A stretch of 64,000 nucleotides of DNA from a bacterium (GCA_963662285.2 CAXXMV010000006.1:96001-160000); one strand, 5' to 3'; shown: positions 39,866 to 43,664, numbered from the stretch's first letter. Made by a program: numbers and translations. The notes: generated from the sequence alone by a model not told the origin.

Positions 39866-40426
39866 CTAAAAATTAATTGCCTTGATTTCCAGATTGGTTA
39901 TCTCTGGAGGAAGTTCGACGAAGCGGTCTACCAAGCCAAAGGTCTGCACGATTTTACCTGCAATCGAGATGAAACCCCGTGGAATCCAGATATTTATGTT
40001 ATGACCATGATGCCCGCCTTCTTTAACATGGATTTTCAAAAATCCTTGCGAAGCGGCGCTGGATGAGGTTAAAGGTTCCACGTAAATCCTGATATTATCA
40101 TCACCGGTAATACGCACTAAATCCTCGCCGTTCATGGTTTTAAGTTCATCAGTTATCATTCCCGGCGTAAGTTCCAATTCATGGCATAATTTACGGATTT
40201 CTTTGGGCATTACATTGAATGAGGTTTTGAGTAAAGAAAGAGGGATGGATACGTGTACTTCATCCCCATGATGTTCTTTAACTTCAATAACTAATAGGGC
40301 GTCACCGAAAATAGGCGCCGAAGAGACCGCGAAGACGCCAACGCCGCACACAATCATTAATAGAAAGAGTATCAAACCAAAGCGAATTAATTTTCTGATT
40401 CTTCTCATCATGATAAATCCCTCCAC
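39866..40426 (-). CDS. Hypothetical exported/membrane-anchored protein with an internal duplication
   Basis: N-terminal hydrophobic segment; twice [IH][EH]VKE..H...[VI].[VI].IP. GGAGG RBS before the MM at about 40411. Confidence 0.8.
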   Translation of the reverse strand: MEGFIMMRRIRKLIRFGLILFLLMIVCGVGVFAVSSAPIFGDALLVIEVKEHHGDEVHVSIPLSLLKTSFNVMPKEIRKLCHELELTPGMITDELKTMNGEDLVRITGDDNIRIYVEPLTSSSAASQGFLKIHVKEGGHHGHNINIWIPRGFISIAGKIVQTFGLVDRFVELPPEITNLEIKAINF

Positions 40427-40451
40427 TCATTTTTAACTGCTTATCTACTAA

Positions 40452-40477
40452 TACGTGAGCAGGAGGTATTTATTTCA
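40452..40477 (-). promoter_or_regulatory. Putative SigW-like ECF promoter
   Basis: Minus strand TGAAAT-N16-CGTA, just upstream of the 186 aa gene. Confidence 0.55.
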
Positions 40478-40667
40478 AAAACATCAGAAAATCATGTTTA
40501 AAAACGACAATATTGTTGGTTATTCTTTTGCACGGGCGCCTACTATCAACCCTCTCCTAGCCTCTCCCAATCTTGTATGAACCGGGCACATCCTTTACAG
40601 AATAAACCGGGCACATGGTTTACACAAGTCGATACTAAGAACCGACCAGAAGAAAGGAGTCGGTTCG

Positions 40668-41879
40668 ATGACTTGGAAGGAAAACAGTGCCATGGATGCA
40701 AGAATGAAATTTATTGCGGATGTCCTCCGCAAAGAAGACACACTAAGCGCCTTATGCCAAGCATATGGCATTAGTAGACCAACCGGATATAAATGGATCA
40801 AGCGCTATCAGGAAGACGGTCCTGGTGGATTGGAGGAGCGATCCCGGGCGCCCCATACCCAAGCACTAGCCGTTTCTAAAGAGACCGAAAAAGAAGTGAA
40901 GGCTATGCGAAAAAAGTTTCCGCACTACGGTCCTAAAAAATTACGGGTGGAACTGAAAAAAAAGGATGCGACGAAGCACTGGCCGGCAACCAGTACGATT
41001 GGCGAGATACTAAAACGCAAAAATCTGATTGTCAGCCGCAAGCAAAAAGATCGCGCCAAACCAAGTGGTGAAGCGTTAACCGAATTCGACCAAGTGAACC
41101 GCGTATGGTGCGCGGATTTCAAAGGAGATTTTCTAACGGGAGACGAACATCGATGTTTCCCTTTAACCGTATCGGAAGGGGCTAGCCGCTATTTACTCTG
41201 CTGCCAAGGCATGCAAGAAACCAATGGCGCATTGGTACGCGTAATTTTCGAGCAGATTTTTCGCGAGTATGGTTTACCAGAAGTCATTCGAACGGATAAC
41301 GGGGCGCCCTTTGCGTCGACCGGAATCGGAGGGTTAACCAAATTATCCGTGTGGTGGATAAAACTGAGAATTTATCCAGAACGAATCCAGCCGGGTCGGC
41401 CTCAACAAAATGGCCGTCATGAGCGAATTAACCGGACCTTGAAAGCAGAGGCCATTTCTCCACCAGCGCCAACGCTGCGTGAACAACAAAAACGTTTTGA
41501 TCAATTTCAAAAAGTGTACAACGAAGAGCGGCCTCATGAGAGTTTGGGACAACGACCTCCCGCGCAGTTGTATCAACCCTCGCCGCGCGTCTATTCAGGT
41601 AAAGCGCCGAATTGGGAGTATCCAGAGACCATGCAGGTGCGCTAAGTGAAAACCCATGGTGAAATCAGTTGGCGAAGCAAGCATTGGTATTTGGGGGAAG
41701 CTTTGGGAGGTGAATTGGTGGGACTAGAGGAATTGGAAGAGAATAATTGGCGCATTAGTTTGGGTAACGTGATTCTCGGTTGGTTGAATATGTCAAAAGG
41801 TGAGGTGGTGCGTGAATTGTCTTTGAGACGCATCAATCATCCAAAAGCAATCAGTCACCCGGCAGTATGTCCCAGGTAA
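40668..41879 (+). pseudogene. IS481 transposase interrupted by an in-frame TAA (41643-41645)
   Basis: HTH (GISRPTGYKW), WCADFKG, IRTDNGAPF, PQQNGRHER and YNEERPHESL. The same frame continues VKTHGEISW...LGEALGGELVGL after the stop. Confidence 0.9.
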
Positions 41880-42005
41880 AAAATGAGCTAGGGAAGTATC
41901 AAGATGATGAATAATTCAGGTATTAATTTTCCTGAGATTGAATCCAGATCGTCTCTTTTTCGAGAAAATCAAAGAGCGCACGGGTGAAAAAAAAGGTGGC
42001 AATAT

Positions 42006-42207
42006 CGGGGGCGCCGCCCCCGTACCCCCGGAGTTTTTTTAGGCATTAGCACAAACTCCAGATAGTATGCAAAAAAAAGCAAAGGGACGGTTCTAAATCC
42101 GTCCCTTTAGCGACTATCCGTCGCCCGTGCACCAGGATATCCCTTGACAGGTTGCTCTCCAGCAGAGCCTGTCTCCGTTTCTCCTGGTGATAATAACTAT
42201 CGGATAG
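42006..42207. ncRNA. Candidate structured RNA/ssDNA element in the IS481 3' non-coding region
   Basis: At least five complementary helices seen by eye (see findings). The strand is undetermined. Confidence 0.5.
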
Positions 42208-42491
42208 CTCGAAATAATCTGTAGAAAAAGAAGTAAAAAAACAGTTCTAGCAAGTAAGCAATTCAGAATACGTTGATATACCTGAAAACGGATTATCTCT
42301 TTAAAAAAACAGATAAGTTGCCATAATTTTCGAGACAAAAGTGTAAACCATGTGCCCGGTCTAAAGTGTAAACTATGTGCCCGGTCATTCACAAGAGGGG
42401 GTTGTTTTCAGTAACTTCCGTTTTCTGATTTACGTAATAATCAATAGTTTAACTGCCGTTTTTAGGTTTATTCAACAATTTGGAGTTAATA

Positions 42492-43664
42492 ATGACAAAA
42501 CCAGAATTGAGAATAGTATTAACAGTATTTTTGACAACAATCCTCACGCTCAACATTTCTGCGCTTGAATTCGATCAACCTCTACCAGAGTCGCTTACCA
42601 AACAATTTCAAGATACACTGAATCAATATACAGAAAAAATAAAACCCGGATATATTCCCGGATATTCCGCCGCCGTCCATATCGAAGGAATCGGAATGTG
42701 GATTGGCGTTACCGGAAATGCTGTGAAAGGAGAAACAATCAGGACAGACGAGGGAGTAGAATACCCGGGCGCAATCCCTCTACAACACGGAGATCAATTC
42801 CATATTGGAAGCCTTACTAAACAGTTCGTTTCTGTTGTGGTATTGCGTCTTATGGAAGAGGGCAAACTAACTTTGGATGACACTCTGGAGCAGTGGGTTC
42901 CAGGTGGTATAGTAGCCAACGCTGAACTGATCACCATACGTCAATTACTAAGCCATACGAGTGGAGTATACGATAACACATCAGTACCAGTTTTTTTTAA
43001 TACTGTTAAACTCGATCCAAATTCGCCCGGCACGGCCAAAGAAATAATCGAATACGTAAAAGATAAAAACCCCAAATTTTCTCCTGGACAACCAGGACAG
43101 TTCAGTTACTCAAATTCAGGATACACCCTCCTCCACATGATAGTTGAAGCAGTTACGGGAAAACCTTTTGTAGAAGAATTCCACAGACTCGTGACTCAAC
43201 CACTAAACTTGAATGAAACTTATTATGGCGGTTTTGAAGAAATTACTGATTACTCTACTCTGGGCTATGAAGGAAGTAAGGTTGTATCAAATGACATGCA
43301 TTTATCATGGGCTGCGGGTGCGGGAAACATAGTCTCCACCGCCGACGACGTTTGCCGTTTCGCTTCAACGATATTCGGTGGATATTATCTTCAACCGGAA
43401 ACACTAATAGAAATGACTACTCCCATTGAAAACAACTATGGCCTTGGAGTTGGTGTTGCAGGAGAAGACTGGAAATACGTATTTCATTCAGGTAGTATTT
43501 TTGGATTCTGCTCAGATTTTATATATAATGCGAATTGTGGGATCACGGTGATTTGTCTTCAAAATTCATCATCGACTAATAATACGCGTAACATTAATAA
43601 TAAGTTCTTAAAAATATCCTTTGAATGGATTGAAACCTCAGTTCAGGAATGGTCTCTGTATTGA
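42492..43664 (+). CDS. Secreted serine hydrolase (beta-lactamase/D-Ala-D-Ala peptidase family), copy 1
   Basis: Signal peptide, SxxK (GSLTK), LLSHTSG, YSN and HSG motifs; ends ETSVQEWSLY*. GGAG RBS before ATG 42492. Confidence 0.93.
   Translation: MTKPELRIVLTVFLTTILTLNISALEFDQPLPESLTKQFQDTLNQYTEKIKPGYIPGYSAAVHIEGIGMWIGVTGNAVKGETIRTDEGVEYPGAIPLQHGDQFHIGSLTKQFVSVVVLRLMEEGKLTLDDTLEQWVPGGIVANAELITIRQLLSHTSGVYDNTSVPVFFNTVKLDPNSPGTAKEIIEYVKDKNPKFSPGQPGQFSYSNSGYTLLHMIVEAVTGKPFVEEFHRLVTQPLNLNETYYGGFEEITDYSTLGYEGSKVVSNDMHLSWAAGAGNIVSTADDVCRFASTIFGGYYLQPETLIEMTTPIENNYGLGVGVAGEDWKYVFHSGSIFGFCSDFIYNANCGITVICLQNSSSTNNTRNINNKFLKISFEWIETSVQEWSLY

Follow-up and report, generated by a model that had tools for sequence, protein, structure and literature searches.

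A putative family of small structured RNA genes carried in the noncoding ends of insertion sequences

Insertion sequences (ISs) are usually described as carrying the bare needs of mobility. The 64,000-nucleotide stretch of bacterial DNA analyzed here (GCA_963662285.2 CAXXMV010000006.1:96001-160000, hereafter the window) contains IS-A, an IS481-family insertion sequence in which about 460 bp of noncoding DNA separates the transposase stop codon (41877-41879) from the right terminal repeat (42342-42394). An earlier note on this DNA had given the length of that stretch correctly and had proposed that it holds an IS-encoded noncoding RNA. What is this element, and what does it do at the end of a transposable element? 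From sequence comparison, we conclude that it is probably one copy of a widespread, uncatalogued family of small structured RNA genes that travels as a passenger in ISs.

Anatomy and conservation of the element

The noncoding stretch of IS-A is rich in inverted repeats, all of which lie where the earlier note had placed them. These are CGGGGGC/GCCCCCG (42006-42022), GGAGTTT/AAACTCC (42030-42059), GATAGT/ACTATC (42061-42118) enclosing AAAGGGACGG/CCGTCCCTTT, and CACCAGGA/TCCTGGTG (42130-42189) enclosing GACAGG/CCTGTC. CTATCCG is found at 42114, CGGATAG at 42201, and ATAATA, the minus-strand TATTAT, at 42190-42195. For the region 41990-42215 the predicted folding energy is -85.8 kcal/mol (z -5.60) for the plus strand and -92.4 kcal/mol (z -5.81) for the minus strand, and none of 200 dinucleotide shuffles folded as well on either strand.

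The relatives used below were 69 sequences aligned with MAFFT (alignment A4, fitted to no structure), and the 76-nt core was used to build a covariance model, R1. Read against these relatives, the element is most likely a structured RNA gene of about 190 nt that occupies roughly 42195-42000 on the minus strand and is convergent with the transposase gene. Its predicted parts are as follows.

42196-42225, minus strand: promoter-like block, with a -35-like TCTACA (42225-42220), an 18-nt spacer and a -10-like GATAGT (42201-42196), assigned from conservation
42130-42189, minus strand: conserved 5' domain, P1 to P3 (R1, 92.3 bits; covariation)
42189-42182 paired with 42137-42130, minus strand: P1
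42181-42174 (GAAACGGA) opposite 42145-42138 (AAGGGATA), minus strand: 8x8 internal loop
42173-42168 paired with 42151-42146, minus strand: P2, about 5 bp, next to a CUC bulge
within 42167-42153, minus strand: the CUC bulge and P3, 4 bp, UGCU-GGAG-AGCA with a GGAG tetraloop
42049-42130, minus strand: long second hairpin, P4 plus P5 (fold -36.2 kcal/mol, z -5.4)
within the second hairpin, minus strand: P4, GCAC/GUGC plus GGAUAGU/ACUAUCU, enclosing P5 and a U8 tract
42108-42081, minus strand: P5, AAAGGGACGG/CCGUCCCUUU; with the U8 tract at 42080-42069 it resembles an intrinsic terminator
42031-42046, minus strand: nearly invariant unpaired 3' box, AUGCCUAAAAAAACUC (= AUGCCUnnAAAAACUC), from conservation in 69 sequences
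42006-42022, minus strand: G+C-rich hairpin CGGGGGCGGCGCCCCCG past the box, with a distal U8 tract at 41996-41986

Comparison with relatives changes several of these parts from what the window alone would indicate. The inner hairpin, given in the earlier note as GCT-CTCC-AGC, is UGCU-GGAG-AGCA, the version that covaries. The GGAGTTT/AAACTCC hairpin exists in the window but is private to this copy, as its place is taken in relatives by the conserved unpaired box. The alternative pairing of CTATCCG with CGGATAG is likewise present as a complement but peculiar to the window copy, and in relatives it falls in the promoter-like block. That block is conserved as CTnCAG...CCGATAnT in the closest RNA relatives. 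The TATTAT at 42190-42195 had been suggested as a promoter element. It is present but is probably not the promoter, since the conserved upstream block puts the -10-like GATAGT at 42201-42196.

Unpaired bases are strongly conserved too. Across the family the internal loop reads GAAACGGA opposite A(A)GGGAUA and is nearly invariant, and a C-G pair across this loop becomes U-A in one sequence. In the 3' box, seven positions are the same in 69/69 sequences, and another six agree in 90% or more. Such near-invariance of unpaired bases across phyla suggests either an elaborate tertiary structure or a universal partner (a ligand, or a core cellular protein or RNA).

The second hairpin is more variable. 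In MAFFT and RNAalifold analysis of the 69 sequences it could not be aligned and was instead folded sequence by sequence, giving a median z of -5.0; on a sub-alignment of 37 sequences, RNAalifold recovered only its 4-bp closing helix. By eye, most sequences have that closing helix, a 3x3 loop of GAC opposite NGA, and an A/U-rich helix. The 3x3 loop of P4 probably forms tandem G-A pairs. A kink-turn was considered here and set aside, as the sequence appears to be off the consensus and a tandem G-A loop is likelier. By a loose criterion, the G+C-rich tip is followed by a U run in 42 of the 69 sequences; the other 27 have no U run after P5. The sole terminator-like site found by a scan of the window lies on the minus strand at 42109-42080 plus CTTTTTTTTG (T8), and only the P5 sub-element combines a G+C-rich hairpin with a direct U run. 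The G+C-rich hairpin at 42006-42022 likely ends a long form of the RNA. By eye, a hairpin after the box appears to be usual in relatives outside Bacteroidota. This hairpin and the plus-strand T7 run at 42034-42040 form a possible terminator of the transposase gene.

Two variants of this layout were seen. In four copies from Acidobacteriota and Chthoniobacterales (L072, L068, L080 and L127) the RNA is about 220 nt long because additional hairpins separate P5 from the box. Core and box are unaltered, so insertions are tolerated in the middle part. In another locus (L091, about 2497-2515) a reverse-complement 3' box, TGAGTTTTTTTTAGGCAT, lies just upstream of the RNA promoter region and could mark a second, inverted partial cassette.

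The earlier note had called for a covariation check, and in alignment A4 the helices covary. RNAalifold recovered P1-P3 unaided and gave the corrected inner hairpin as UGCN-GGAG-N'GCA. Standard pairs fill 93.5% of the paired cells versus 77.0% in shuffles. The covariation score is 0.517 versus 0.185 when shuffled, and 0 of 500 shuffles scored as high, a count and not a probability. When partners were slid by 1-3 columns the score was at most 0.082. Double changes occur in 14 of 17 pairs, and a model-fitted alignment gave the same covariation picture. On these alignments the element has an RNA-type structure under selection. Compensatory changes in the helices, together with loops that are invariant across phyla, indicate purifying selection on structure.

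Distribution, strand and genomic neighborhood

The RNA is not confined to IS-A. A sensitive blastn search of the noncoding stretch against the genome returned an 86%-identical, 79-nt CACCAGGA...TCCTGGTG hairpin at C8:769320-769397, located at the 3' end of an IS21 element, and about 20 weaker copies. The weaker copies lie in IS-B, a second IS481-like element of about 1.5 kb that is present in at least 18 copies; the transposases of IS-A and IS-B share 36% identity. The IS-B copies of the RNA begin right after the stop codon of the transposase gene and have its orientation, whereas the IS-A copy is antisense. The fourth variant is a solo copy at C8:756393-756468. Among these four genomic variants, the outer two helices differ by compensatory changes and the loops are constant.

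R1 found 25 matches in this genome (5 in IS-A, 18 in IS-B and 2 solo). Matches were present in 22 of 61 genomes, that is, this genome and 60 relatives, and in 13 of 19 other genomes of the same family; they extend to other orders, classes and one distant lineage. An exact pattern of 23 specified bases was found in at least 105 stretches among contigs representing one genome per species. On 80 loci fetched with this pattern, R1 gave 80 matches in 79 loci (one locus matched twice), and the match in L062 fell beyond the E-value limit. Many of the pattern matches are labeled Bacteroidota, with Tenacibaculum, Chitinophaga, Segetibacter, Ferruginibacter and Sediminibacterium among the genus names. 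Other labels are Acidobacteriota, Planctomycetota (including Brocadiaceae and Pirellulales), Chthoniobacterales, Cloacimonadota, Armatimonadota, Sumerlaeota, Delongbacteria, Zetaproteobacteria, Syntrophales/Desulfobacterales and a Roseateles bin, and we take the labels to represent at least 10 phyla. At least one named strain, Oligosphaera ethanolica DSM 24202, is among the carriers (L069). Nothing matched in plasmid or E. coli collections, and viral contigs gave 0 exact pattern matches.

The transposase of IS-A has no close homologue at E <= 1e-40 among the 60 related genomes; its only matches are IS-B and a single 38%-identical gene in genome G013 (locus L158). Homologous IS481 3' ends, which the earlier note proposed to compare, are represented by these three elements only: IS-A and IS-B carry the RNA, but the L158 locus has none, even with the R1 filters off. 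As the RNA is antisense in IS-A, sense in IS-B and lacking at L158, it is best seen as a separately acquired cassette and not as an ancestral feature of IS481.

Four lines of evidence point to an RNA on the minus strand of the window, as the earlier note had guessed: an excess of G-U pairs, the stability of the second hairpin, the terminator-like site, and lineage-specific boxes upstream. Paired positions hold G-U in 156 cells and A-C in 93. In 58 of 69 sequences the sense strand gives the more stable second hairpin, with a mean difference of 5.5 kcal/mol. The sequence just upstream of P1 varies with the host lineage while its distance to P1 is kept; one group has a near-consensus TTGAC-17-nAnnAT, and Bacteroidota copies have TAnnTTTG, which we take to be the Bacteroidetes -7 promoter element. 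Among 101 distinct upstream regions, strict patterns were found as follows: TTGAC-N16-19-nAnn(A/T)T in 10, TAnnTTT(G/A) in 29 and the type-1 block in 7.

Judged by its reading frames, the element is noncoding. In 51 of 69 sequences every one of the three sense frames is interrupted by stops, and by eye the variation is not focused on third codon positions. Several other identities were tried and rejected. A small open reading frame (ORF) starting from the AUG of the box has UAA as its third codon in several copies. The copy at C8:769320-769397 follows an ORF fragment (MASHFNREQQ...) and was considered a remnant of another transposase gene; against this stand the compensatory helix changes, the lack of third-position bias and its location at an IS21 3' end. 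A frameshift stimulator past the A-rich slippery sites of IS3-like orfA remnants was rejected as most copies lie beyond the end of the transposase gene. A chromosomal housekeeping or 6S-like RNA, considered for the 'type 2' copies, was rejected because a normal 6S RNA is found elsewhere, the flanking proteins are mutually unrelated, and C-terminal fragments of transposases precede the RNA.

The RNA has transposases of unrelated families as neighbors. About 44 neighbor ORFs were scanned against Pfam and NCBIfam, and all neighbors were then compared with the labeled ones by blastp. The context set contains 112 R1 matches, including some duplicates and weak matches. A labeled transposase lies within 600 nt of 65 of them; the other 47 are at contig ends, in remnants, or beside unlabeled genes. 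The 65 transposases belong to the Zn-binding IS256 variant NF048019 (30), rve-type IS3-like elements (24), IS21 (IstB; 5), IS110 (4) and IS481 (2). The RNA is convergent with the transposase gene in 49 cases and co-directional and downstream in 14; the other 2 are both doubtful. It is on the 3' side of the transposase gene in 63/65 and in the window lies 150-310 bp beyond the stop codon. In the IS256-variant elements of Bacteroidota, the box, read as its reverse complement, supplies the final codons of the transposase gene (...EF(F/L)KA-stop), and immediately after the stop codon comes the second hairpin. Outside these elements the box is noncoding and is conserved to the same degree. The proposal of an IS-encoded noncoding RNA holds as to a conserved, covarying, noncoding structured element, but not as to an IS481 property.

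The earlier note had also named a targeting RNA as one option, and the distribution largely refutes this idea. A bridge- or omega-RNA-like guide for the transposase would fit the location in a noncoding IS end, and IS-A and IS-B both insert into one type of palindrome resembling repetitive extragenic palindromic (REP) sequences. The same RNA, however, accompanies five transposase families of different chemistry (DDE and DEDD), which makes it an unlikely cofactor of any of them. Its unpaired bases are constant though element ends and targets differ, its orientations in IS-A and IS-B are opposite, and the L158 relative lacks it. TnpB and IscB were not found among the roughly 44 neighbor ORFs scanned against Pfam and NCBIfam; the remaining neighbors were compared only with transposase seeds, which would not show one. 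A guide function is scarcely credible on this evidence.

Comparison with known RNAs

The element matched no catalogued family. In a cmscan search of Rfam 15 by E-value, no family was found for the window region 40400-42500, for L019, L020, L007 and L035 1150-1650, which cover IS-B, the two solo loci and a 'type 2' locus, or for five Bacteroidota loci. The window has partial overlaps at chance level, far under the gathering scores, with ROSE_3 (14.8 bits versus 43, E 7.9) and CcsR1 (13 bits versus 65.3, E 8.6). L102 has one with mir-26 on the opposite strand (19.8 bits versus 57, E 0.86). All other weak matches are outside the element. An ordinary 6S RNA, a type known as a long rod with a central bubble, is encoded at C2:1539357-1539540 (66.3 bits), and the 6S model RF00013 finds nothing at the IS copies. 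A likeness between the box and a segment of 5S rRNA was dropped as no Rfam 5S match was found. A search of the full-text literature, including for the conserved 19-mer, returned no description of the RNA; supplementary files were outside its scope.

To our knowledge, each of the RNAs known from ISs (RNA-OUT, art200, omega RNAs, bridge RNAs and Ssr9) belongs to one IS lineage and serves its own enzyme. IS10 RNA-OUT and IS200 art200 are small RNAs (sRNAs) transcribed opposite the transposase gene that restrain its expression, each in one IS; RNAs of this type overlap the mRNA of their own transposase at its 5' end, where translation starts. The RNA described here, in contrast, is on the 3' side in 63/65 cases, is sometimes co-directional, and is common to unrelated ISs. 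The bridge (seek) RNAs of IS110/IS1111 and the omega RNAs/reRNAs of IS200/IS605 have programmable loops or guides that vary with target and donor, and each serves one recombinase or nuclease family. The former work with a DEDD recombinase and have internal loops complementary to their element's target and donor ends; the latter lie at the 3' end of tnpB or iscB and have a guide extending beyond the IS end. The present RNA is like them in being a structured RNA in a noncoding IS end. Unlike bridge/seek RNA, it has IS110-type neighbors in only 4/65 cases and loop bases that are invariant across element families. Unlike omega RNA/reRNA, it neighbors rve, IstB, IS110 and IS256-variant transposases, and 49/65 copies point inward to the transposase gene.

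The nearest precedent is Ssr9/MITEPpu9. Ssr9 is an sRNA gene with its own promoter, downstream of the ISPpu9 (IS110) transposase gene in Pseudomonas putida KT2440 (PMC12288879). Ssr9 also occurs as solo copies, is not needed for transposition, and was interpreted there as a selfish gene that hitch-hikes and may have a regulatory role (PMC12288879). According to that work it is confined to one IS in three P. putida strains, is flanked by copies of the IS's own end boxes, and is complementary to the Asr9 antisense RNA of the same IS (PMC12288879). The likeness to our element, drawn by description alone, is an sRNA gene on the 3' side of the transposase within an IS, with solo copies (PMC12288879). 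Unlike Ssr9, the RNA in question accompanies five IS families across many phyla, its conserved bases are not tied to one IS, and by eye it has no flanking copies of IS ends.

Possible functions and rival explanations

The distribution points to a benefit that is independent of the transposase. One conserved fold is shared by IS481, IS3-like, IS21, IS110 and IS256-variant elements of Bacteroidota, Acidobacteriota, Planctomycetota and others. A fold shared by unrelated ISs, often many copies per genome (25 here) and promoter-like boxes that match the lineage imply selection for such a benefit. The RNA would then work without any particular transposase and would help the IS via the 3' end of the transposase gene or via a cellular partner conserved across phyla. 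In the convergent layout, which has a terminator-like hairpin between the two genes, transcription from outside would be blocked from entering the IS, the transposase transcript would be terminated, and read-through would give antisense RNA to the 3' end of the transposase gene. A role in regulating or insulating the transcription unit, possibly with binding of a partner, is conceivable though somewhat doubtful, and no single alternative is favored more.

The 3' box may also be part of a compact fold. It would dock on the internal loop, by pairing of AGGGAU with AUGCCU, and on the GGAG loop, by pairing of GAG with CUC. AGGGAU:AUGCCU forms 5 of 6 pairs, and in place of its central G-G mismatch L048 has U-A, by a double change, and L027 has G-C. 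Together the two complementarities could give a doubly pseudoknotted fold with an A-run along the P2-P3 stack. On the boldest view, the element represents a new class of compact functional RNA, maybe doubly pseudoknotted, that acts as a ribozyme, a sensor or a decoy for a universal cellular machine, and has spread over at least 10 phyla in at least 5 IS families by a transposase-independent advantage to the IS or the host. We advance this tentatively, as plausible but on balance not probable. If it is true, many insertion sequences are vehicles for an RNA gene and not minimal transposase-only elements. The family would be a concrete candidate for a general IS-host interaction, would add a large family to RNA catalogues, and would improve the annotation of 'noncoding' IS ends. 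Its carriage by Oligosphaera ethanolica DSM 24202, a named strain, makes experiments feasible.

Several observations weigh against these readings. Because the aligned sequences share ancestry and many belong to multi-copy ISs, the shuffle statistics appear better than they would with independent data; for covariation, more weight attaches to the slid controls and to how many distinct pair types occur. The taxon labels are those of metagenome bins, some of which may be misassigned. Folding energy gives the core alone no significant strand preference (41/69, p 0.13). Among the 101 upstream regions, 55 fit no strict promoter pattern, with many near-matches by eye, and the promoter box of the window itself is under the threshold of a consensus scan. 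The 14 co-directional copies are not antisense to their own transposase gene, so an antisense mechanism is not the whole explanation. The P5 terminator-like hairpin precedes the box, and a transcript ending there, of about 120 nt, would be without it. Covariation is no test of the proposed tertiary pairs, which link bases that hardly vary; changes toward AGGGAU:AUGCCU are seen only in L048 and L027, and L047 favors an alternative, C20-G56.

The likeliest rival is a sensor or attenuator. Here the 5' domain would be an aptamer that recognizes a universal ligand or protein, and its occupancy would decide between a stop at P5 and continuation. Read-through would run antisense into the transposase gene in convergent copies, and out of the IS end, or across a circle junction into the transposase gene, in co-directional ones. 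Internal-loop bases that are near-invariant across phyla while the stems covary are the usual pattern of aptamers. Promoter, structured domain and terminator-like hairpin come in the right order, with a U run after P5 in 42/69, and a conserved box beyond P5 implies that read-through transcripts appear important. Riboswitches, however, normally sit before the gene that they control. No conserved anti-terminator pairing was seen in the sequences compared; the AAGGGA:UCCCUU complementarity of the window is by eye not kept in relatives. In addition, P5 lacks a U run in 27/69, and nothing points to a ligand. We consider a sensor unlikely.

A self-cleaving ribozyme is a further possibility. The 5' domain, perhaps with the 3' box docked, would trim transcripts that read into the IS or would set the ends of the RNA. 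Small size, invariant loops, a possible double pseudoknot and association with mobile DNA recall small ribozymes, and since no known ribozyme family was matched, this would be a new class. No cleavage site can be identified in the element, though, and a protein-binding RNA would fit the same features equally. On this basis, self-cleavage appears distinctly improbable.

It could also be that the element has no RNA function and is a pair of terminators or an insulator, or a DNA palindrome (a single-stranded DNA hairpin or a protein-binding site) copied with IS ends. P5 and its U tract are terminator-like. With flanking A and U tracts between convergent RNA and transposase genes, P5 is indeed like a two-way terminator, and in IS256-variant elements the second hairpin right after the transposase stop would fit a terminator shared by both. 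The core's folding energy also has no strand bias. A two-way terminator leaves the conserved 5' domain, the tandem-GA-like loop of P4 and the invariant 3' box unexplained, and invariance of 8x8 loops and a tetraloop from phylum to phylum is not a property of terminators. An RNA is also favored by the lineage-specific promoter-like boxes, which lie upstream of P1 at a fixed distance, by the surplus of G-U over A-C cells and by a second hairpin that is more stable on the sense strand. We therefore regard the absence of any RNA function as very improbable.

Finally, a decaying mobile-element remnant, a nested MITE (a miniature transposable element with inverted repeats) lacking selected function, or a short protein-coding gene deserves almost no credence. 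It would fit the cassette's movable behavior, the solo copy at C8:756393-756468 and the 47/112 matches with no labeled transposase near, but it is opposed by the compensatory helix changes, the loops invariant across phyla and, for the coding version, the all-frame stops and the early UAA after the box AUG. The earlier note had named a nested MITE as a reading to check; by eye no terminal inverted repeats were seen at the cassette borders, and a systematic search was not made.

The host element and its surroundings

The IS that carries the RNA in the window is about 1.82 kb long. Its parts, defined from copies, flanks, Pfam domains and ends, are as follows.

40574-42394, plus strand: IS-A, IS481-family insertion sequence
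40574-40626, plus strand: left terminal inverted repeat, with AACCGGGCACAT twice as an internal direct repeat
40668-41879, plus strand: transposase gene of 403 codons (Pfam rve, rve_3, HTH_32, LZ_Tnp_IS481)
42342-42394, plus strand: right terminal inverted repeat, from comparison of copies and flanks

IS-A is present in five near-identical copies in the genome (the window, C1:607793, C1:1154693, C2:75832 and C6:695579), and their flanks part ways right before TGTATGAACC, which sets the left end. The RNA sequence is identical across all five. In the window copy the transposase frame has a CAA to TAA nonsense change at 41643-41645, and two other copies share a GAA to TAA change at codon 358. With the 403-codon frame whole in only 2/5 copies, IS-A looks recently active and now decaying one copy after another.

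A promoter-like site, TTTAAA-16-CATAAT with an upstream TG, lies at 42300-42327 on the plus strand and points outward to a 394-codon ORF at 42480-43664; one such site equals the chance expectation (1.0 in shuffles), so it is a lead to a possible outward promoter. At C1:1212782-1212869 (L006), beside a gene end, there is a solo remnant of the right end of IS-A; it matches 42273-42361 at about 91% identity and does not include the RNA.

The solo RNA copy at C8:756393-756468 has a different neighbor. Upstream of it, in locus L020 (C8:755700-758800), is a long ORF that opens with a zinc-ribbon-like CPKC...CDNC motif and continues into an apparent TIR-like segment and an NTPase (GKAGIGKS). By eye alone, its product resembles an anti-phage STAND-type protein.

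The flanks of IS-A (40540-40573 and 42395-42412) and of IS-B copies (for example C6:654008 and 655515) are REP-like palindromes, CCCCTCTCCCC...GGGGGAGA(GGG). Since both IS481-like elements lie in such palindromes, site-specific insertion into a repeated extragenic palindrome is suggested. At C1:606300-607800 (L004, L165) one IS-A copy adjoins a truncated IS-B end, where the left repeat of IS-A replaces the left-end sequence of IS-B, so that the two ISs are nested or adjacent.

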